Assembly: GCF_000016745.1 (NCBI RefSeq)
Contig: NC_009483.1
Span: 30,001-62,000, forward strand
Length of the DNA: 32,000 bases
Direction: 5' to 3'
Source: Geotalea uraniireducens Rf4
Lineage (GTDB): Bacteria; Desulfobacterota; Desulfuromonadia; Geobacterales; Geobacteraceae
Below, piece after piece: positions 1,776 to 26,223 of the stretch. The translations under genes and the position numbers were made by a program. The notes beneath the pieces were generated by a model that made no database searches, was not told the DNA's origin, and saw only the letters and a list, made by a program, of their open reading frames with translations. How positions within the stretch are numbered: the stretch's first letter is position 1; every line of letters starts with the position of its first letter.

Positions 1776-1894
1776 CGCCGACTACCGACCGCCGACTGCC
1801 GACCGCCGACCGCCGACCGCCGACCGCCGACCGCCGACCGCCGACCGCCGACCGCCGACCGCCGACCGCCGACCGCCGACCGCCGACCGCCGTC
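1776..1894. repeat. tandem heptanucleotide array, about 17 x CGCCGAC (GTCGGCG on the transcribed minus strand)
   Basis: Counted directly. Units run in one 7-nt register from 1776; variant units TACCGAC, TGCCGAC, CGCCGTC. The last unit overlaps the U32 gene stop codon (1893-1895). Confidence 0.95.
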
Positions 1895-4288: not shown

Positions 4289-4756
4289 AGGGGGAAAAAG
4301 GGTCAAGCTGGATTGTGTCGACAACAGTTTGGACAGAAAGAGAGCCGAGGGATACGCTTCAAGGCAAACGATTTCGACTGCCCTGATGATCTTCCGCGGA
4401 TCGATGGGGATGAGGCGCGGTTGCACCAGGTCCCGACCAACATCATTTCCAATGCCCTGAAATATTCGCCGAAAGAGGCCCTTGTTTCCATCGGGGCGCG
4501 GCGGGAAGCGGACAACGTCACCATCTGGATCAAGGACGAAGGGATGGGGATTCCTGCGGAATTGCATGAGAAGATATTCGAAAAATTTTATCGGGTGGAT
4601 AACACCGACCTGCGGATGATCGGCGGCACCGGTCTGGGGCTGGCGTTGGTGCGGGAAATAGTCAATGCCCACGGCGGGCGGGTCTGGGTTGAAAGCGCCG
4701 TAGGGAAGGGAAGTACATTTTTTGTGGCCCTGCCGATTGTCAAAAATGTAAGATAA
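4289..4756 (+). pseudogene. histidine kinase remnant: HATPase_c catalytic domain only, no H-box, probable internal frameshift
   Basis: N, G1 and G2 boxes are present (NIISNALKYSP, IKDEGMGIP, GGTGLGLALV). No DHp/HisKA region exists upstream because the divergent U32 gene starts at 4271. Linker-like sequence KRVKLDCVDNSLDRKRAEG lies in another frame just upstream and would join IRFKAND with a 1-nt shift near 4345. Confidence 0.55.
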
Positions 4757-4798
4757 AACATGCTGACGGTTTTCTTTGTTGATTGTCGTCGCTTACTC

Positions 4799-5287
4799 TC
4801 AGTGATTGCTTTCTTTCGACTTCCTTACCCGATGATGCCCCTTTTTCTTGGCGGCACCGGCAAGGGAGAGAATGTCGGACTGGGAAATGCGCCAGACGCC
4901 GTCTTCCTTTTGCAGCTTGAATGATCTGGTCGTATAGTCCGTGCCTGTTTGCCCGGCTTCAAAGCCGAGCTTTGCCCGCAGGGTAACGGTGCTGTCATTC
5001 CTTACGCTGACCTTGACTTCCTGCATTTTTTCCCAGCAACAGGCAGGTTTTCTGCTCGCCGAGGAAAGCTTTTTAGCGAATTGTTCCTTGCTGCTCCGTC
5101 CGCTCGCCATGGTCCGGGCGTAAAGCTCTTCGAACCTGCCATCGCGCCAGAGATCAAGGATCTCTTCAAAGCCCCGCTGCGACTCGGTCTGCAACTCCTC
5201 GGAGGACATATAAGGGGTCTTTGCCAGGGCAGGGAAAACGCTTGCCAGTGAAAGCATCAACGTGAGTACCAAGAGAACCTTGCGCAT
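4799..5287 (-). CDS. secreted hypothetical protein (162 aa)
   Basis: I trimmed ORF 4799..5473 to ATG 5287, which has a GGAGGAA Shine-Dalgarno 4 nt upstream. Signal peptide MRKVLLVLTLMLSLASVFPALA. The longer listed ORF merely reads through heptamer repeats. Confidence 0.6.
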   Translation of the reverse strand: MRKVLLVLTLMLSLASVFPALAKTPYMSSEELQTESQRGFEEILDLWRDGRFEELYARTMASGRSSKEQFAKKLSSASRKPACCWEKMQEVKVSVRNDSTVTLRAKLGFEAGQTGTDYTTRSFKLQKEDGVWRISQSDILSLAGAAKKKGHHRVRKSKESNH

Positions 5288-5355
5288 ACATTCCTCCGCT
5301 ACGTGAAATTCTGCCAATAATAGAGGAAAGACGGTTGCAGGGCAAGGGGAAAAAC

Positions 5356-5534
5356 GGTCGGCGGTCGTCAGTCGGTGGTCGGCGGTAAAACCACAAACAA
5401 TCGGCGGCCGGCGGTCGGCAGCCGGCGGTAAAACCCGACAACCAACCGCCAACCGCCACCTGCCACCTGCCACCTGCCACCTGCCACCTGCTGCCTGCCG
5501 ACTGCCGACTGCCGACTGCCGACTGCCGACCGCC
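5356..5534. repeat. composite inverted heptanucleotide arrays; probable long-stem terminator of the DAHP synthase gene
   Basis: GGTCGGC-type units at 5356-5383 and 5406-5426, each followed by GGTAAAACC. From 5448 to 5534 there are 12 in-register units (GCCAACC, 5 x GCCACCT, GCTGCCT, 4 x GCCGACT, GCCGACC), complementary to the first blocks. On the minus strand the array starts 2 nt after the stop (5537-5539) and ends in GTTTTTCCCC. Confidence 0.9.
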
Positions 5535-7019: not shown

Positions 7020-7580
7020 TTGTTTAGTGATTTATGCAATAGAAGAACCTTTCTCAAAACTTCGCTACTGGGAGCCTTGGTGCTCTGCAGCGGCATGCCT
7101 GCCTTTGCCAAAGTGCCGATCGAAGAACAACTTCCGGAAGGGAAGCTTTCGCTCTACAACACCCATAACAGCGAGAGGCTTACCATAACCTACCGCAACG
7201 CTGCAGGAGATTACGATATCGGGGCTATCAATGCCCTTAACTGGATACTCCGCTGCCACTATACGCAGCAGGTGGCGGACATGGATGTCCGGGTCATCGA
7301 GTACCTCAATCTGGTGGACAAAAGGCTCGGGGGAAATAATGAAATCCACATCATTTCCGGGTACCGGTCGCCGGTGTATAATTCACTGCTCCGGCAGGAA
7401 GGGCGGCACGTTGCCAAGCACAGCCTGCATCTGAAGGGAAAGGCCATCGATATCGCCATTCCCGGGATAGGCCTGGATCGTGTGCGGCATACCGCACTGA
7501 ACCTGCGTTACGGCGGAGTCGGTTATTATCCGAAGACCGGCTTTGTCCACGTGGATTCCGGTAATTTCCGTGCCTGGTAG
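7020..7580 (+). CDS. Tat-exported DUF882 / peptidase M15A (YcbK/MepK-like) protein
   Basis: Twin-arginine signal NRRTFLKTSLLGALVL. Motifs SGYRSPVYN, HLKGKAIDI, GGVGYYPKTGFVHVDSG..RAW. I chose TTG 7020, 6-7 nt after AAGGAGGAG; the track ORF starts at 6990. Confidence 0.8.
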   Translation: MFSDLCNRRTFLKTSLLGALVLCSGMPAFAKVPIEEQLPEGKLSLYNTHNSERLTITYRNAAGDYDIGAINALNWILRCHYTQQVADMDVRVIEYLNLVDKRLGGNNEIHIISGYRSPVYNSLLRQEGRHVAKHSLHLKGKAIDIAIPGIGLDRVRHTALNLRYGGVGYYPKTGFVHVDSGNFRAW

Positions 7581-7783
7581 CCGACGATGCCGCGGCATCT
7601 CCTCCTGTTCCTCGCGCCATGCATTTTACCAACCTTCGCTCTTTCCCATGCTTTTCCATATGGCCGAGCTCTAAGTCAGAGGCGGTTTTTTTTGCTGCGC
7701 CTTTCAGGCTGGAATGGTATATTGCTGGGGACCATGAAAGTTGATGCTCTATCTCATACTGCCAAAAGACAAGGAGAAGTTTC

Positions 7784-8554
7784 ATGAAACGATCATTGAT
7801 TCTTGCAGCCGCAGCCCTGATTTCGCTCTTGCCGGTTGCCGGCCACGGCGCGGATGCCGGAAAGCCGGTGCATCCGGCGGTTTCCTCTGCCCGGCCTGAA
7901 GCGGTGAAGCCCAAGGAGCAGACCCCCGTTACGGGTAAGGTGATGCAAACCATGAACGGCGGGGGGTACAGCTATATCCTCCTGAAAAAGGCGAGCGGCG
8001 ACAAGGTTTGGCTGGCCGTACCGCAGATGGATGTTGAACTGGGAGCGACATTAACCTTTAAGCCCGGTATGGAAATGGCGGATCTGCAAAGTAAAGCCCT
8101 GAACCGGACCTTTGAGAAGATCATATTTTCCGAAGGTCTCGTTGATGGAAAAGGGGGTAAGAACGCCAAGAAGAGCGCCAAAAAATCGCCCGGCAGCAAA
8201 GGCTCTGTGGCAACCGCAGGCGAGAAAATAAAGGTGAAAAAGGCCACCGGTCCCAACGCCTATACGGTTGCCGAGCTGTATAAGCTGAAAGGGAAGCTGG
8301 ATAAAAAGAAGGTTGTCGTCAGTGGCAAGGTAGTCAGGGTTTCAGCCGGCATCATGGGTAAAAATTGGGTCCATATTCAGGACGGGAGCGGCGATGCGAA
8401 GAAAGGCACCCATGACCTGGTCGTTACCTCCCAGGCTGTGCCGGTCATCGGCGAGGTGGTGACCGCCAGCGGCACGCTTTATAAAAACAAAGATTTCGGC
8501 GGCGGCTACAAATACGAGGTGATCGTGGAAAAAGCGGAACTGGAGATTCAGTAA
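7784..8554 (+). CDS. secreted protein with two OB-fold-like repeats and a Lys-rich linker
   Basis: Signal peptide MKRSLILAAAALISLLPVAG. Internal duplication (TGKVMQTMNGGGYSYILL.. and SGKVVRVSAGIMGKNWVHIQDGSG..). AAGGAGAAG Shine-Dalgarno. Terminator follows. Confidence 0.6.
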   Translation: MKRSLILAAAALISLLPVAGHGADAGKPVHPAVSSARPEAVKPKEQTPVTGKVMQTMNGGGYSYILLKKASGDKVWLAVPQMDVELGATLTFKPGMEMADLQSKALNRTFEKIIFSEGLVDGKGGKNAKKSAKKSPGSKGSVATAGEKIKVKKATGPNAYTVAELYKLKGKLDKKKVVVSGKVVRVSAGIMGKNWVHIQDGSGDAKKGTHDLVVTSQAVPVIGEVVTASGTLYKNKDFGGGYKYEVIVEKAELEIQ

Positions 8555-10569: not shown

Positions 10570-10593
10570 GGGACTGGGAACTGGGAACTGGGG
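10570..10593. repeat. short heptamer array GGGACT GGGAACT GGGAACT GGGG
   Basis: Starts the base after the M16 stop codon (10567-10569). Four G3+ runs with 3-4 nt loops. Confidence 0.8.
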
Positions 10594-10639
10594 AAAAAAG
10601 CCGAAATTATCAAGGATCGTTGCTGATAAAGGAGTGTCG

Positions 10640-11684: not shown

Positions 11685-12794
11685 ATGGCAAATAAACCTC
11701 TCAAATACGGCTATACCACCGGCGCCTGCGCTGCCGCGGCAGCGAAAGGCGCAGCGCAGATGCTGCGGGATCGACAGCTGCTCGATCACGTGGAGATCAT
11801 TCTCCCCGGTGGAGAGCTGGCAGAGTTTCAGCTGCATGGTCAAGTGCTGGGTGAAAATTCCGCTTCCTGCTACGTGATCAAGGACGCGGGAGACGATCCC
11901 GATGTGACCAACGGTGCGGAAATCCATGCCTCCGTGCTTGTCGAGACAGCGACGGACTGCGGCAAGGGCGAGGTGATTATTTCCGGCGGTACGGGGGTCG
12001 GCAGGGTGACCAAGCCGGGACTGGCCGTAGCGGTCGGCGAGTGGGCGATAAATCCGGTGCCGCGAAAGATGATCCGCCTGGTCATCCATGAGGTCTTTGC
12101 CATCCGCTGCATGCCGGCGGTCATCAGGGTGGCTGTCAGCATTCCCAACGGCGAGGAGCTTGCCAAAAAAACCCTTAATGCCCGGCTTGGCATTATCGGC
12201 GGCCTGTCCATCCTCGGCACCACCGGAATCGTCAAGCCTATTTCCGTCAAGGCCTGGACCGATACCATCGATGCCGCCATTGACGTGGCCCTGGCCTGCG
12301 GCAGTGAAACTGTCGTCCTTTCCACCGGACGGACGAGCGAGATGGTTGCGGAGAAACACTTTGGGATCGGGGATCGGGGATCGGGGATCGGGAAAGGCAT
12401 GAAGGAGGAGTCCTTCATCATGATGGGTGACCATGCGGGTTATTCCCTGGCAGCCTGCGCCCGGAAAGGGGTGAGGAGCGTCGTTGTCGCCGGCCAGTTC
12501 GCCAAGCTCTTGAAGATCGCCTGCGGCCACGAGCAGACCCACGTCGCGTCATCCGAGCTGGACCTCCGGACTCTGGCGGAATGGTGCGCCGTTGCCGATC
12601 CCAGATCCCAGATCCCCGGTTACTGCTTGAAAGCGAACACTGCCCGGCACGTACTGGAGGCTTCCGGCAACGACCCGGAGCTGATCGCTCTCGTCTGCGG
12701 CAGGGTGAGGTCGTTTGCCGAAAAGCTGGCCTCGGGCGTAGAGATAAAGGTTTTGCTGGCGGGGTATAATGGAGAAGTGTTATATTTCGGCTGA
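11685..12794 (+). CDS. cbiD: cobalt-precorrin-5B (C1)-methyltransferase, with two repeat-encoded insertions
   Basis: KYGYTTGACAAAAAKGA at the N-terminus, ILGTTGIVKPIS, MMGDHAGY. Insertions GIGDRGSGIGKG and DPRSQIP are encoded by heptamer arrays. Confidence 0.85.
   Translation: MANKPLKYGYTTGACAAAAAKGAAQMLRDRQLLDHVEIILPGGELAEFQLHGQVLGENSASCYVIKDAGDDPDVTNGAEIHASVLVETATDCGKGEVIISGGTGVGRVTKPGLAVAVGEWAINPVPRKMIRLVIHEVFAIRCMPAVIRVAVSIPNGEELAKKTLNARLGIIGGLSILGTTGIVKPISVKAWTDTIDAAIDVALACGSETVVLSTGRTSEMVAEKHFGIGDRGSGIGKGMKEESFIMMGDHAGYSLAACARKGVRSVVVAGQFAKLLKIACGHEQTHVASSELDLRTLAEWCAVADPRSQIPGYCLKANTARHVLEASGNDPELIALVCGRVRSFAEKLASGVEIKVLLAGYNGEVLYFG
12363..12392. repeat. 4 x GGGATCG (+GG) inside the cbiD coding sequence
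   Basis: Counted directly. Five G3-4 runs separated by ATC on the sense strand. Confidence 0.9.
12595..12618. repeat. CCGATC CCAGATC CCAGATC CCCC inside cbiD, reverse complement of the 12363 array type
   Basis: Counted directly. The reverse complement reads GGGG GATCTGG GATCTGG GATCGG. Confidence 0.85.
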
Positions 12795-15041: not shown

Positions 15042-15308
15042 ATGCGTTCAGTTACAGCTACGGAGCTCGCCCGCAACTTCCGGGTAACGCTCGACGCGGT
15101 AGAATACAATCATGAAGAATTTATAATCGTTCGCAACAATCATGAAGTGGCAAGAATCATCCCCGGCCCGTCAACCATGACAGCCATGGAAGCGATGGCG
15201 GATATCTACCGGACTCTGCCTGAAGAAGCTGCAGCCGGCTGGCTGAGAAATTCCCGGCAGATCAAGGATATCCTGAGCGACGAGGTGCGCGATCCATGGG
15301 ATTCCTGA
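15042..15308 (+). CDS. vapB: type II antitoxin, Phd/YefM family (VapB-like)
   Basis: N-terminus MRSVTATELARNFRVTLDAVEYNHEEFIIVRNN is typical of Phd/YefM. It overlaps the downstream PIN gene by 13 nt. Confidence 0.75.
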   Translation: MRSVTATELARNFRVTLDAVEYNHEEFIIVRNNHEVARIIPGPSTMTAMEAMADIYRTLPEEAAAGWLRNSRQIKDILSDEVRDPWDS

Positions 15309-15736
15309 TCGACACCTGTATCTGGATTGATGTTGAAAGAGGAACGCTCGCTCCTGCCGATGTAGCCGCTGTTACCGGCGAAGAACCTGTCTACCTGTCG
15401 CCGGTGACCATAGCGGAGTTGAAATTCGGTGCGGAGAACGCCAAAACCGCCGATCTCCGCCAGAAACGGCTGGCAGCACTCACGCGGCTCAAGCGAAAAC
15501 CGCTGCTCATGATCGACGAGACGACAGGTGAGATTTTTGGCGATATCGCCGCGCAGATCAGAAAACATGGCAAGCAGCATCAGTACCGGGTCCAGGATTT
15601 ATGGTTAGCCAGCCAGGCCGTACAGCACGGTTTTCGATTTCTTACCCATAACCGCAAGGACTTTGCCGACATTCCTGGACTACAGCTCATCGTTTGGAGC
15701 GATGCATTTAGCATGAAGGCGCGGCAGGGTGAATAA
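15296..15736 (+). CDS. vapC: PIN-domain ribonuclease toxin VapC
   Basis: LIDTCIWID (first acidic residue), SPVTIAELKFG, DLWLASQA, LTHNRKDF: the standard PIN/VapC layout. Confidence 0.8.
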   Translation: MGFLIDTCIWIDVERGTLAPADVAAVTGEEPVYLSPVTIAELKFGAENAKTADLRQKRLAALTRLKRKPLLMIDETTGEIFGDIAAQIRKHGKQHQYRVQDLWLASQAVQHGFRFLTHNRKDFADIPGLQLIVWSDAFSMKARQGE

Positions 15737-17901: not shown

Positions 17902-20265
17902 ATGACACAGTCTACCTTATACATTGTCGGTATCGGTCCTGGCGGCCTCAACCACATGACGTTCGAAGCACGGGATGCGCTTGAGAGGTCCCAGGTGGTG
18001 GTCGGCTACAAGACCTACCTGGACTTCATCACGCCGCTTTTGGCCGGGAAAGAGGTTGTCTCTTCCGGCATGATGAAGGAAGTGGATCGCTGCAACGAGG
18101 CGCTCGCCATTGCAGGCTCGGGCAAGACGGTTGCCCTGGTTTCCAGTGGCGATGCCGGGGTTTACGGCATGGCTGGATTGGCGTTGGAGCTGGCGGAAAA
18201 CCTGCATGATCCCCCCGAAATCATCATCGTTCCCGGTGTTTCGGCGGTGCAGGCGGCAGCCGCAGTTCTCGGCGCGCCGCTCATGCACGATTTTGCGGTA
18301 ATATCCCTTTCAGACCTGCTTACTCACTGGGATACCATCGAACGGCGCCTTGTGGCCGCGGCTGCGGCGGATTTCGTGGTTGCCCTCTACAATCCCCGCA
18401 GCAAGGGGAGAACGACGCAGATTGAATCGGCCCGAAATATCATGCTGGCGGCCCGTTCCTCCCGCACTCCCGTCGGCATTGTGCGTAATGCCTGCCGCGA
18501 CGGCGAGGAGAAGGTCGTTACGACCCTTGCAGACATGCTTTCCCACCATATCGACATGTTTTCCATAGTCATTATCGGCAATTCCGCCACCTATGAAGAT
18601 CAGAAAGGGAGGATGGTAACGCCGAGGGGGTATGAGACAGGAGCGAGGAACGAGGAGCGAGGAGCTAGGAGCGGGGAACGGGGAACGAGGGCAACAAGAG
18701 AAAACCTCAAACCTCGAACCTCGAACCTCGAACCTGCCGCGCAGCGCGCCGTGATGTTCTGCGGCACCGGGTCAGATGTGGGGAAATCCGTCCTCACCGC
18801 CGGATTGTGCCGCATTCTCAGCAGGCGCGGCATCTGCGTGGCGCCGTTCAAGTCCCAGAATATGGCTCTCAACTCGGCGGTCACCCCGGAAGGGGGGGAG
18901 ATCGGCCGGGCCCAGGCAGTGCAGGCCGAGGCATGCGGCATACCGTCCCATACGGACATGAACCCGGTCCTGTTGAAGCCCAACTCAGACACGGGGAGCC
19001 AGATCGTCGTCCAGGGGAAGGTGATCGGCAACATGCGGGTCGCGGAGTACAACGCCTACAAGCCGGAGGCGTTTGTCAAGGTGAGGGAGAGTTTCGACCG
19101 TCTCAAATCGCGCTTTGATTTTGTCGTCATCGAAGGGGCCGGAAGTATTGCCGAGATCAATCTGAAGCGCCACGACATTGCCAATCTGAAGGTGGCCGAG
19201 ATGGCCGGCTGCCCGGTGATCCTGGTGGCGGACATCGACCGGGGAGGGGTCTTCGCCCAGATCGTCGGCACTGTCGAGCTTTTGGAGCCGGCTGAGCGGG
19301 CGATGGTCAAGGGTGTCATCATCAACAAGTTCCGCGGCGATGCTTCGCTCTTGAAGCCGGGCATCGACTTTGTGGAAGGGAGGACCGGCCTGCCGGTGCT
19401 GGGTGTGGTCCCTTATTTCCAGGGTTTCCGCATTCCGGATGAGGACAGTGTCGCCCTGGAAAAGCGTGGGACCGGGGATCGTGGACCGGGGACCGGCAAG
19501 GACAAGATCCATGTCGGCGTAATCAAGCTGCCGCGGATTTCCAATTATACCGACTTCGACGTGCTGGAGAGGGAGCCGGACGTCACACTGCGCTATATCG
19601 ACAGTCCGAAGCAACTGTCCGGTCTGGACCTCCTTATCCTCCCCGGGAGCAAATCCACCATTGCCGATCTTTACTATCTGATGGAACACGGCTTGTACAA
19701 GGCGATTCGCAGCTTCAGCGGCGCGATCATGGGGATTTGCGGCGGTTACCAGATACTGGGGAGGCGGGTGCTCGATCCGTTCAACATCGAATCCGACATC
19801 AGGGAAGCCGAAGGGCTGGGCCTGCTGGATGTGGAGACGACCATGCTGATGAAGAAGGAGACCCATCAGGCCGAGGCCAGGCTTCTGCCGGGCATTGTGC
19901 CGGTTGCAGCGGATTGCGGCGAGGAACTGACTGGTTACGAAATTCACATGGGCGAAACAATCCTGGGCGCCGGGGCACGGCCGTTTGCAACGATCACCCT
20001 TCGTTCCGGCAAGGCGGTGGATGTTCAGGACGGGGCGGTTTCGCCGGACGGAAGGGTGTTCGGCACATACCTGCACGGCGTCTTCGACAACGCCGGGTTC
20101 AGATCCGCCTTTCTCAACAGGATCAGACGGGAGAAAGGGTTGCAGGAACAAAGGAAGGTCGTCATCCTGAAGGACCCCTTCGACCTGCTGGCGGCGCATC
20201 TGGAGCGGCATGTGGACATGGAGCGGCTGCTGGCGATCTGCGGCCTGGCGAATCCTGAAGAGTAG
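17902..20265 (+). CDS. cbiH/cobQ: single ORF fusing cobalt-factor III/precorrin-3B C17-methyltransferase (CbiH, about 17902-18630) to cobyric acid synthase (CobQ/CbiP, about 18745-20265)
   Basis: N-terminal LYIVGIGPGG...VPGVSA...IIGNS..MVTPRGY. C-terminal MFCGTGSDVGKSVL..., NKFRGD, PRISNYTDFD, GICGGYQ, YLHG. The linker GARNEERGARSGERGTRATRENLKPRTSNLEP is encoded entirely by a heptamer array. Confidence 0.8.
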   Translation: MTQSTLYIVGIGPGGLNHMTFEARDALERSQVVVGYKTYLDFITPLLAGKEVVSSGMMKEVDRCNEALAIAGSGKTVALVSSGDAGVYGMAGLALELAENLHDPPEIIIVPGVSAVQAAAAVLGAPLMHDFAVISLSDLLTHWDTIERRLVAAAAADFVVALYNPRSKGRTTQIESARNIMLAARSSRTPVGIVRNACRDGEEKVVTTLADMLSHHIDMFSIVIIGNSATYEDQKGRMVTPRGYETGARNEERGARSGERGTRATRENLKPRTSNLEPAAQRAVMFCGTGSDVGKSVLTAGLCRILSRRGICVAPFKSQNMALNSAVTPEGGEIGRAQAVQAEACGIPSHTDMNPVLLKPNSDTGSQIVVQGKVIGNMRVAEYNAYKPEAFVKVRESFDRLKSRFDFVVIEGAGSIAEINLKRHDIANLKVAEMAGCPVILVADIDRGGVFAQIVGTVELLEPAERAMVKGVIINKFRGDASLLKPGIDFVEGRTGLPVLGVVPYFQGFRIPDEDSVALEKRGTGDRGPGTGKDKIHVGVIKLPRISNYTDFDVLEREPDVTLRYIDSPKQLSGLDLLILPGSKSTIADLYYLMEHGLYKAIRSFSGAIMGICGGYQILGRRVLDPFNIESDIREAEGLGLLDVETTMLMKKETHQAEARLLPGIVPVAADCGEELTGYEIHMGETILGAGARPFATITLRSGKAVDVQDGAVSPDGRVFGTYLHGVFDNAGFRSAFLNRIRREKGLQEQRKVVILKDPFDLLAAHLERHVDMERLLAICGLANPEE
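18639..18736. repeat. 14 in-register heptamers: AGGAGCG family x5, GGGAACG x2, 2 degenerate, AAACCTC/GAACCTC x5
   Basis: Counted directly; 98 nt is exactly 14 x 7. Confidence 0.9.
19468..19495. repeat. GGGACCG GGGATCG TGGACCG GGGACCG inside cobQ
   Basis: Counted directly. Encodes GTGDRGPGTG in the linker before the glutamine amidotransferase domain. Confidence 0.85.
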
Positions 20266-23778: not shown

Positions 23779-23823
23779 TTGACAAGAAACGAAATAGGAT
23801 TACTTTAAAAAGAAATGATTTCT
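23779..23823 (+). promoter_or_regulatory. candidate promoter plus Fur/Zur-box-like palindrome
   Basis: TTGACA (23779-23784), 16 nt, TACTTT (23801-23806). The palindrome AGAAATGATTTCT (23811-23823) lies within a 21-nt near-palindrome just downstream of the -10. Confidence 0.45.
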
Positions 23824-23834
23824 ATTTAGTTTCT

Positions 23835-23940
23835 GTCCGAAAAGGGTGCTTGTATGCCCTGGCTGTGTCAATCTGCGGGCTTGCTTGTGCGGCGTACCGA
23901 TGTACGCCTCCGCGCAATCCCTTGATTTCCTTGCCAGGAC
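23835..23940. repeat. imperfect palindromic REP/MITE-like element (GTCC...GGAC), copy B
   Basis: Central hairpin GGCGTAC cgat GTACGCC. Shares GCGTACC..GTACGCCTC and the terminal GCC(T)AGGAC with copy A, in the same orientation. Confidence 0.55.
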
Positions 23941-23963
23941 ATAAAATCCCCGCTTTCCGAATC

Positions 23964-24008
23964 AGAAACCAATAGTTTCTCATCGGGAGTTTCCGGATGG
24001 AAACTATT
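23964..24008 (+). promoter_or_regulatory. cluster of GAAAC/GTTTC inverted repeats just upstream of zur
   Basis: AGAAAC caata GTTTCT (23964-23980), GTTTCC ggat GGAAAC, and AATAGTTTC (23971-23979) against GAAACTATT (24000-24008). These give alternative hairpins or operator half-sites. Confidence 0.4.
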
Positions 24009-24022
24009 TACTGCGGGGCAAC

Positions 24023-24451
24023 ATGTACGACCAACACTGTCAGGCGCTAAAGGGGCTGAAGCTGAAGGCCACGCCGAAAAGGCTGGCCATTCTCAGTCTG
24101 CTGGCAGAGGAATCCGCTTACGTCAGTCCGGAAGAGATCTGGCGCAAGCTTCAGGGAAAGTTCGGCCGGCTCGGCCTGCCGACAGTCTACCGCAACCTGG
24201 AGGAACTGGCTTCGGGAGGGGTCATCAGCAAGGTAATACACCCCAACCGCCAGCTCTATTACTATTTTTGCCCGAACCGCCACCATCACCACCATTTCAT
24301 CTGCATCGCCTGCAGAAAGGTCGAAGACATCGATTTTTGCGGCATGGACGAGATTGCAAAAAACATCAGCGGCACGGTGTTGTCCCATATCGTTCAAGTG
24401 AACGGTCTCTGCCACACTTGTTCGAATCAACAGGAAGGGGTAGCCCTATGA
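24023..24451 (+). CDS. zur: Fur-family metalloregulator, probably Zur
   Basis: Winged-helix N-terminus (ATPKRLAILSLL), HHHHHFIC..C and C..C metal sites. Coupled to the znu-like genes by an ATGA overlap. Confidence 0.7.
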   Translation: MYDQHCQALKGLKLKATPKRLAILSLLAEESAYVSPEEIWRKLQGKFGRLGLPTVYRNLEELASGGVISKVIHPNRQLYYYFCPNRHHHHHFICIACRKVEDIDFCGMDEIAKNISGTVLSHIVQVNGLCHTCSNQQEGVAL

Positions 24452-26141: not shown

Positions 26142-26146
26142 CAACA

Positions 26147-26223
26147 GGTTCGAGGTTCGAGGTTCGAGGTTCGAGGTTCGAGGTTCGAGGTTGGTTTTTA
26201 ATGTAGAACGTTGAACGTAGAAC
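26147..26223. repeat. 11 in-register heptamers: 6 x GGTTCGA, GGTTGGT, TTTTAAT, GTAGAAC, GTTGAAC, GTAGAAC
   Basis: Counted directly. Begins 5 nt after the znuC stop and ends 18 nt before the znuB ATG. GGTTCGA is the reverse complement of the GAACCTC unit at 18.7 kb. Confidence 0.9.

Follow-up and report, generated by a model that had tools for sequence, protein, structure and literature searches.

A heptanucleotide-repeat linker in the bifunctional CbiH-CobQ protein of Geotalea uraniireducens Rf4

Heptanucleotide-repeat elements are documented in Geobacter metallireducens, for which Table S4 and Fig. S2 of Aklujkar et al. 2009 (PMC2700814) list Gmet_H401 to H449. Such elements consist of about four or more tandem, G-rich heptamers followed by GGAAAA; some lie between co-directional genes, and others are in-frame parts of coding sequences, at times several to a gene. 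In that supplementary material, H411, H412, and H413 lie within the fused cobQ gene (Gmet_0485), which is annotated as bifunctional, H409 and H410 lie within cbiD (Table S4), and H403, in a Ddl-FtsQ fusion, is described as a “linker between fused proteins” (Table S4); the paper calls the elements putative regulatory RNA elements. Here we describe heptamer arrays of similar organization in Geotalea uraniireducens Rf4, where they form the linker between cobalt-precorrin methyltransferase CbiH and adenosylcobyric acid synthase CobQ, encoded by a single open reading frame (ORF). The analysis covers a window of 32,000 nucleotides (assembly GCF_000016745.1, contig NC_009483.1, positions 30,001 to 62,000), and all positions are those of this window unless a relative is named. 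Sequence comparison indicates that the protein is probably an ordinary, family-wide Geobacteraceae CbiH-CobQ whose linker is a translated heptanucleotide-repeat element, serving as a flexible tether and kept in frame by selection.

The CbiH-CobQ fusion and its heptamer linker

Both modules are complete within one ORF that holds no internal stop codon (Table 1). The NCBIfam profile TIGR01466 (cobJ_cbiH) is matched over positions 1 to 239 of 239 with 315.6 bits (cut-off, 246.35), and the CobQ profile NF001989/PRK00784 is matched over positions 2 to 479 of 480 with 640 bits (cut-off, 273); Pfam places TP_methylase at residues 5 to 211, CbiA/AAA_26 at 282 to 509, and GATase_3 at 538 to 731 of the 787-residue protein. 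A preliminary description, made from the letters of the sequence and an ORF list, had read the locus as cbiH and cobQ in a single 787-residue ORF, with CbiH homology ending at about MVTPRGYE and no stop codon behind it. These points were all borne out: the cobJ_cbiH profile ends at residue 245, CbiH residues up to Y244 are invariant in an alignment of 15 fusions, and the frame is open through the junction. The linker was delimited as residues 246 to 282 because these lie between the two NCBIfam profiles.

The same description took the 98 nt between the modules to be 14 heptamers and nothing else. The arithmetic holds, as 98 nt can be divided into 7-nt steps, but the steps fall into two distinct arrays around an A-rich spacer: seven units, then approximately 12 to 15 nt of non-repeat sequence (GGGCAACAAGAGAAA), then five units of a second family. 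Read from 18639, arm 1 consists of AGGAGCG, AGGAACG, AGGAGCG, AGGAGCT, AGGAGCG, GGGAACG, GGGAACG, and a partial unit, rather than opening with five uniform copies of AGGAGCG as first described. Between the arms, 7-nt steps give two non-repeat “units” (AGGGCAA and CAAGAGA). Arm 2, whose unit is equivalent to CCTCGAA, runs AAACCTC, AAACCTC, GAACCTC, GAACCTC, GAACCTG and is followed by a 14-nt non-repeat stretch (CCGCGCAGCGCGCC). The two arms are complementary at 5 of 7 bases per unit. Among periods of 4 to 12, 7 is the sole period that yields arrays anywhere in the 32-kb window, an exclusivity well beyond chance.

Position and orientation relate the linker to the G. metallireducens elements. Coordinates in Fig. 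S2 of the 2009 paper (PMC2700814) place H411 (+) at 530025, H412 (−) at 530117, and H413 (+) at 530867 in cobQ and place H409 (+) at 524206 and H410 (−) at 524445 in cbiD. The resulting spacings of 92, 842, and 239 nt compare with 63, 829, and 234 nt in the window, and orientations are equal (+/−/+ in cobQ and +/− in cbiD). By this comparison, G. metallireducens and the window have five array positions in common; across the family, positions are kept but unit sequences are not. Both linker arrays have at least four tandem units (7.4 and 4.7 copies by Tandem Repeats Finder [TRF]), and the window holds arrays in both settings described for the G. metallireducens elements (four intergenic and five intragenic). 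The consensus GGGACCG or GGACCGG is absent from the linker (AGGAGCG/AGGAACG and CCTCGAA) and, within the window, is represented only by the array at 19468 to 19496, which makes the linker a sequence variant of the kind that falls outside the BLAST-defined G. metallireducens family. The linker also differs in copy number, with arms of 7 and 5 units that are only 5/7 complementary, compared with 4 units in the G. metallireducens elements. Both the kind of element, of which the linker is a sequence variant, and its position were already on record for Geobacter. Complementarity of arms across species, turnover of units, and adjacency to stop codons are not described in the parts of the 2009 paper that were available to us (PMC2700814), and the inverted-arm architecture, unit turnover, and stop-codon adjacency are modestly new descriptive points.

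The fusion is shared across the family. Methylase and CobQ domains are both present in all of the best 120 homologue clusters (68 to 94% identity and 94 to 100% coverage), which come from Geotalea, Geobacter, Geomonas, Geomobilimonas, and uncultured Geobacteraceae or Desulfuromonadales. These proteins are 759 to 818 residues long, save for a truncated 736-residue entry and a 913-residue entry with an extra domain. Citrifermentans also has the fusion. The homologue of Geotalea daltonii (77 to 78% identity) is already named [quoted passage not shown]; it resembles the protein described here in domain order, length, and operon context (cbiG, fusion, cbiB, cobD) and is unlike it only in linker sequence, with degenerate GGTTCTA/GGTTCGA and TAGAACC arms (fold z score, −4.9). 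At the DNA level, the junction is one open frame in 25 of 25 distinct loci, approximately 15 of which are Geobacteraceae junctions among the matches listed in genome and metagenome contig scans (where matches listed were mostly distant CobQ loci), while the rest come from exact-protein look-ups. Loci of relatives are designated below by L numbers.

In loci from other groups, cbiH and cobQ lie next to each other but are parted by stop codons or a change of frame; examples are Nitrospirae L006, Clostridiales L007, L008, Desulfobaccales L011, and L012. With a fused gene in the family and separate genes in these outgroups, the fusion is older than this genome and was not produced in it by the repeat, and the earlier proposal that a repeat expansion erased a stop/start junction fails as an event of this genome, given the 120 of 120 fused clusters. 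On its distribution, the fusion is ancient, family-wide, and already annotated. Erasure of the junction by a repeat remains plausible as the ancient origin. In outgroups with separate genes, G-rich heptamer-like arrays directly follow the CbiH C terminus ...TPRGY (L006, L008, L011, and L012), and they supply the stop codon in L006, L011, and L012. Heptamer units are stop-free and add 1 nt modulo 3, so that an element of this kind could bridge any frame offset once a stop codon is lost. The fusion probably arose once, in the family ancestor, when an intercistronic heptamer element, of the type found directly behind stop codons and open in every frame, came to bridge cbiH and cobQ. By analogy, heptamer bridging is a plausible route to the ancestral fusion, the same situation as that of the Ddl-FtsQ linker of G. 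metallireducens.

The junction of L008, an AT-rich outgroup metagenome-assembled genome, merits separate mention (8085 to 8215 of that locus). There, cbiH ends with TGA, and an overlapping ATGATG opens the cobQ frame through a hairpin and an ACATCCC x4 array. The hairpin (AGAAGCA x4/TTGCCTC x4) is complete; it occupies the stretch from the cbiH stop codon to cobQ and has no stop codon in the cobQ frame. The whole resembles the junction found in the family, but unfused or out of frame.

Alignment of the junction with those of relatives, proposed as a check in the preliminary description, finds it fused in every intact relative, with unit numbers and unit sequences that vary. The genome represented by L081 is 95 to 97% identical to the window across the operon, yet its linker has been exchanged for a GGGACCG/CGGTCCC cassette; window positions 18630 to 18746 have no alignable counterpart in L081, and the flanks are 96 to 97% identical. 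In L164, the closest relative of the same linker type (92 to 93% protein identity), arm 1 differs from that of the window by exactly 3 units (21 nt) and the spacer by 9 nt, and both changes keep the frame.

The linker most likely works as follows. The peptide would be a hydrophilic, unstructured tether between two autonomous enzymes. Lacking a ribosome-binding site of its own, CobQ would be translated by read-through from cbiH, and this dependence would subject the element to purifying selection that keeps it stop-free and a multiple of 3 in length. Within that constraint the DNA would evolve rapidly, by slippage in which only 3-unit steps survive and by replacement of whole cassettes. In most relatives, the arms are reverse complements of each other and would form an mRNA hairpin of 20 to 35 bp; with the 5/7 complementarity of the window, the hairpin is not demonstrably functional. 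Freedom of the unit sequence to change at a fixed position argues against a sequence-specific protein-binding site, whether in DNA or in RNA.

Several points weigh against the tether interpretation. First, both the tether role and the read-through translation are ones that we infer. Second, an AlphaFold model built on the 15-sequence alignment assigns residues 242 to 281 predicted local distance difference test (pLDDT) values of 23 to 35 and no secondary structure, but the model is poor overall (mean pLDDT, 54.5) and makes a weak statement on the linker at most. Third, two relatives have broken junctions. The linker of L173 is frameshifted, and its CbiH frame ends at the TGA of GTGATG; that of L172 keeps the frame but has three in-frame stop codons in variant units. 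If real, these junctions would mean that an unfused CobQ can be produced by a start at M285, but the same contigs also have a split cbiH or cbiG, and because other cbi genes on them are broken, sequencing error or pseudogenization is possible. Fourth, the arms remain complementary over at least six unit families, an outcome hardly to be expected if each arm slipped on its own; selection for a hairpin may be at work.

Table 1. Features of the CbiH-CobQ locus and other heptamer arrays in the window
Feature	Position	Strand	Basis or remarks
Bifunctional CbiH-CobQ, single ORF	17902..20265	+	787 residues; ORF list, Pfam, NCBIfam, >115 full-length fused homologues
CbiH module (precorrin-3B/cobalt-factor III C17-methyltransferase)	17917..18636	+	Residues 6-245, end ...MVTPRGYE
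Interdomain linker	18637..18747	+	Residues 246-282 (TGARNEERGARSGERGTRATRENLKPRTSNLEPAAQR), 37 residues; hypervariable among relatives
Arm 1, purine-rich heptamer array	18639..18690	+	TRF period 7, 7.4 copies, 84% match, consensus AGGAGCG
Non-repeat A-rich spacer	18691..18701	+	GGCAACAAGAG...; counterpart of hairpin loop in L082, L164, L171
Arm 2, C-rich heptamer array	18702..18736	+	TRF 18703-18735, period 7, 4.7 copies, 96% match, consensus AACCTCG
Short GC-rich palindrome	18737..18750	+	CCGCGCAGCGCGCC; just 5' of first conserved CobQ codons; weak in window
CobQ module (adenosylcobyric acid synthase)	18748..20241	+	Residues 283-780; NCBIfam and Pfam
GTG-ATG (V284-M285)	18751..18756	+	Sole in-frame start-type codons before CobQ P-loop; +1-frame TGA 18752-18754 overlaps ATG
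In-frame GGGACCG x4, peptide GTGDRGPGTG	19468..19496	+	TRF; loop between CobQ ATPase and amidotransferase domains; position of Gmet_H413
In-frame GGGATCG x4.3 in cbiD	12363..12392	+	TRF, Pfam CbiD; position of Gmet_H409; missing in L082 as a 21-nt gap
In-frame GATCCCA x2.9 in cbiD, inverted orientation	12597..12616	+	TRF; 234 nt after the 12363 array; position of Gmet_H410
Intergenic (GGTCGGC)x16.6 on transcribed strand (GCCGACC on forward)	1776..1892	−	TRF; longest array in window; abuts U32 peptidase stop codon 1893-1895 (Pfam)
Intergenic compound inverted heptamer arrays	5355..5534	−	TRF, Pfam; starts 2 nt after DAHP synthase stop codon
Intergenic ACTGGGA x3	10570..10595	+	TRF; starts at first base after M16 peptidase stop codon; one unit more in L081
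Intergenic znuC-znuB: AGGTTCG x6.7, T-rich loop, TAGAACG-type x3	26146..26223	+	TRF; starts 4 nt after znuC stop codon

Arm complementarity and RNA structure

The linker peptides of homologues look like translations of (X)n followed by (reverse complement of X)n, with X differing by lineage. In DNA, the complementary pairs include CGAGGAA/CCTCGTT (L082), GGATCGA-GGTTCGA/CCTCGAA (L089), GGCAAAG/CCTTTGC (L086, L094, and L101), GGGACCG/CGGTCCC (L081 and L170), GGAGTGA/CCCTCAC (L167), GGGACTC/GAGTCCC (L169), and GGTTCTA/TAGAACC (G. daltonii and L165), amounting to at least six different heptamer units across lineages; only 72 of 134 linkers could be assigned to a unit family by exact peptide 4-mer signatures. 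This pattern favors a different explanation, in which the inverted arrays and the small GC palindrome overlapping the first CobQ codons constitute a functional mRNA structure that would make ribosomes pause between the domains, protect the transcript or lead to its processing (e.g., through RNase III), or otherwise set the CbiH:CobQ ratio, with the peptide of secondary importance. We consider it unlikely, although it survives better than the other alternatives.

The arms stay complementary over the units GGGACCG, GGAGTGA, GGCAAAG, GGGACTC, GGTTCGA, and CGAGGAA, and polarity is constant, with a G-rich arm 5', an A-rich loop, and a C-rich arm 3'. When folded with RNAfold and compared with dinucleotide shuffles, 15 of the 25 linkers gave z scores below −3 (range, −3.2 to −7.8), a count that is uncontrolled for kinship of the loci and for cassette replacement; the arms do not align column by column. 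Equal-length flanking coding segments, used as controls, had a mean z of −0.23 (standard deviation, 1.0), and 1 of 98 (1%) fell below −3. The conservation of the five array positions from G. metallireducens to the window would also fit a structural role, as would the recurrent GC palindrome, the 3' arm of which consists of the first conserved CobQ codons; it is found in approximately half of the loci, and folds of individual loci give stems of 6 to 13 bp in many relatives.

The window itself is a weak hairpin case, and its fold is no better than that of shuffled sequences. The linker has a z of −2.0, the region from 18625 to 18770 has a z of −0.86 with 37 of 200 shuffles folding as well, and no inverted repeat was detected in the linker. 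In the minimum free energy structure, arm 1 (CGAGGAG/CGAGGAA) pairs with arm 2 (CCTCGAA) in 5-bp helices parted by 2x2 purine loops; this mixed type of arm recurs in L164 (z, −4.4), L171 (z, −7.6), and approximately nine protein clusters. Further, 10 of the 25 relatives, including Citrifermentans L001, L087, and L088, have no significant hairpin, and complementarity could arise by template-switch mutation or cassette replacement instead of selection. RNAalifold gave no consensus for the region 5' of CobQ M285 (17 sequences, among them L087 at wrong coordinates), because the palindromes share no register. In the whole window no Rfam family reaches its gathering threshold, the cobalamin riboswitch included, although the window holds most of the anaerobic B12 operon.

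A broader version of this idea, somewhat less probable still, extends it to all of the arrays. More than debris of slippage, the arrays would then represent a strand-specific RNA module that combines a G-rich array, an A-rich loop, and a C-rich array complementary to the first. It would be sited where cistrons or domains meet in Geobacteraceae, with selection keeping the arms complementary as the unit sequence drifts. Since 7 equals 1 modulo 3 and the units can be read through in every frame, the module would also act as a “frame adaptor,” permitting gene fusion (cbiH-cobQ and ddl-ftsQ) or else separate products through pausing, processing, or UGAUG termination-reinitiation.

Repeat number, reading frame, and initiation of CobQ

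From the end of CbiH to the CobQ P-loop, GTG 18751 and ATG 18754 are the only in-frame ATG, GTG, or TTG codons, and a reading of the 20 nt 5' of them found no GGAGG-like sequence, in agreement with the preliminary description. Its observation of Shine-Dalgarno-like AGGAG every 7 nt in the first array needs qualification, as the motifs have no start codon 5 to 13 nt downstream. They were rejected as an internal ribosome-binding site for CobQ: no start-type codon occurs within 65 nt downstream of them, and nothing resembling a Shine-Dalgarno sequence precedes 18751 or 18754. Rare-codon pausing was also rejected, because AGG makes up 20% of the Arg codons in genes of the window. No canonical X XXY YYZ slippery site, of the kind used in programmed frameshifting, was seen on reading the linker. 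Among the 25 loci, 21 have the conserved Met285, and in 17 of these the preceding codon is NTG, which places a +1-frame TGA over the ATG.

Simulated changes of unit number confirm the arithmetic of the preliminary description, in which the fusion frame hangs on repeat number and three units restore it. Adding or removing 3 units leaves the fusion intact; −1 or +2 units leave the CbiH frame open as far as the TGA at 18752 to 18754, which overlaps ATG 18754; and +1 or −2 units lead to TAG 18666 or to a long out-of-frame run. The locus could on this basis be imagined as a phase-variable switch, in which slippage by 1 or 2 heptamers turns CobQ off or, for −1/+2, uncouples it from CbiH via UGAUG, giving a population mixed for B12 synthesis. 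Known precedents are the contingency loci, in which non-triplet repeats within ORFs, such as the tetranucleotide repeats of Haemophilus and Neisseria, bring about phase variation. The linker is like them in being a non-triplet in-ORF repeat in which a change of unit number shifts the frame. In contrast to them, it has short, imperfect arrays, belongs to a housekeeping gene, and lies between domains rather than near the 5' end.

Consistent with a switch, unit numbers differ among relatives, L173 shows exactly the predicted out-of-frame state, and a CobQ-only search found CobQ called alone from M285 in approximately 5 of approximately 126 clusters, two of which, L172 and L173, were inspected. 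Against it, all other relatives are in frame and their differences are frame-keeping, the arrays have only 5 to 7 imperfect units, and the gene encodes a housekeeping biosynthetic enzyme rather than a surface or restriction function; for L172 and L173, with their broken cbiH or cbiG, sequencing error or pseudogenization is just as likely. The earlier suggestion that cobQ expression depends on the state of the repeat is thus not upheld, since intact relatives are all in frame and L164 differs by frame-keeping changes. Copy-number-dependent expression of CobQ is unsupported, and a phase-variable switch is improbable.

Short tandem repeats are error-prone in assemblies, but the notion that a miscounted repeat joined two separate genes is effectively refuted: the same fused architecture recurs in >115 independent clusters, complete genomes among them (G. 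daltonii CP001390, G. pickeringii, and Geomonas RF6), and the flanks are collinear with L081 at 96 to 97% identity.

Other heptamer arrays and significance of the element

In addition to the linker, heptamer arrays occur within cbiD, within CobQ, and between genes of the window (Table 1), and arrays of this type are spread over the whole genome. The array at 19468 is identical in L081 and shortened in L082, and at the same site other relatives have other units, including GGCAAAG, GGGACTC, GCGGGAA, and GGGACCA. The two arrays of cbiD (11685 to 12794) flank conserved CbiD sequence and encode the peptides GIGDRGSGIGKG and ADPRSQIPG. Between znuC and znuB, the first array has 6.7 units in the window and at least 13 in L082 (12129 to 12222), and the unit CCTCGAA of linker arm 2 recurs there in reverse complement (26146 to 26192 by TRF). 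In L081 (17354 to 17441), the first arm has been rewritten to GTTCTAN, which complements the TAGAACG of the second, and this looks like a concerted change of both. The compound arrays at 5355 to 5534 comprise the families CGGTCGG, TCGGCGG, CCAACCG, CCACCTG, and CCGACTG, the outer arrays being mutually reverse complementary. For the array at 1776 to 1892, which lies 36 nt upstream of the ATG of the next gene, no complementary arm was found nearby.

On both strands of the window, intergenic arrays mostly start 0 to 6 nt after the upstream stop codon, with a G-rich array 5' on the transcribed strand; this adjacency rests on curated cases, as ORF-based sorting of arrays over 309 kb assigned some of them to spurious ORFs. 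The linker array, which starts right after the last CbiH residue, may by analogy occupy the position that the intergenic arrays have behind stop codons.

Other differences between the window and its relatives are found in the same region. The cbi operons of genomes that are 96% identical hold different toxin-antitoxin cassettes: in the window, Phd/YefM and a PIN-domain protein are encoded at 15042 to 15736, while L081 has two MNT/HepT pairs (4294 to 4942 and 7043 to 7673) at other intergenic sites of the operon. A 613-nt segment of low G+C content (∼47%) at 23810 to 24423 of the window, which includes the 5' part of a Fur-family gene (24023 to 24451), is absent from L081; L082 and G. daltonii have a Fur-family gene at the equivalent place.

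Simple-sequence repeats with a heptamer unit are also known from cyanobacteria, where they are termed STRR. Enterobacterial REP/BIME palindromes form hairpins outside genes, dispersed over operons at cistron 3' ends, and may affect mRNA stability. The heptamer elements resemble them in the siting of hairpins, and no membership is claimed. REPs lack tandem heptamers, share a conserved sequence within their family, are associated with RAYT transposases, and do not serve as translated linkers. The TAACTGA repeats of marine Beggiatoaceae and cyanobacteria (MacGregor 2015; PMC4679880) are similar to the arrays of the window in their period of 7, abundance, mostly intergenic location, and orientation relative to neighboring genes. 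However, TAACTGA repeats have stop codons in all three forward frames and are found mainly upstream of start codons (PMC4679880), whereas the heptamers of the window have no stop codon in the frames used and come as inverted pairs of variable sequence, placed in frame or just after stop codons. As summarized in the same source, Mrazek et al. found heptamers to be the commonest class of long simple-sequence repeat in many prokaryotes (PMC4679880).

For annotation, the 787-residue ORF should be retained as one bifunctional gene and neither split nor marked as a frameshift, and the low-complexity linker should not be mistaken for an assembly error. The locus is a clean case of a non-triplet repeat that is tolerated, and exchanged wholesale, inside an essential biosynthetic gene, and it hints that heptamer elements may promote gene fusion. 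If the hairpin is under selection, the linker would offer a handle on the question left open in 2009, namely, the function of the Geobacter heptanucleotide elements, and would bear on the dominance of 7-nt repeats in several phyla.

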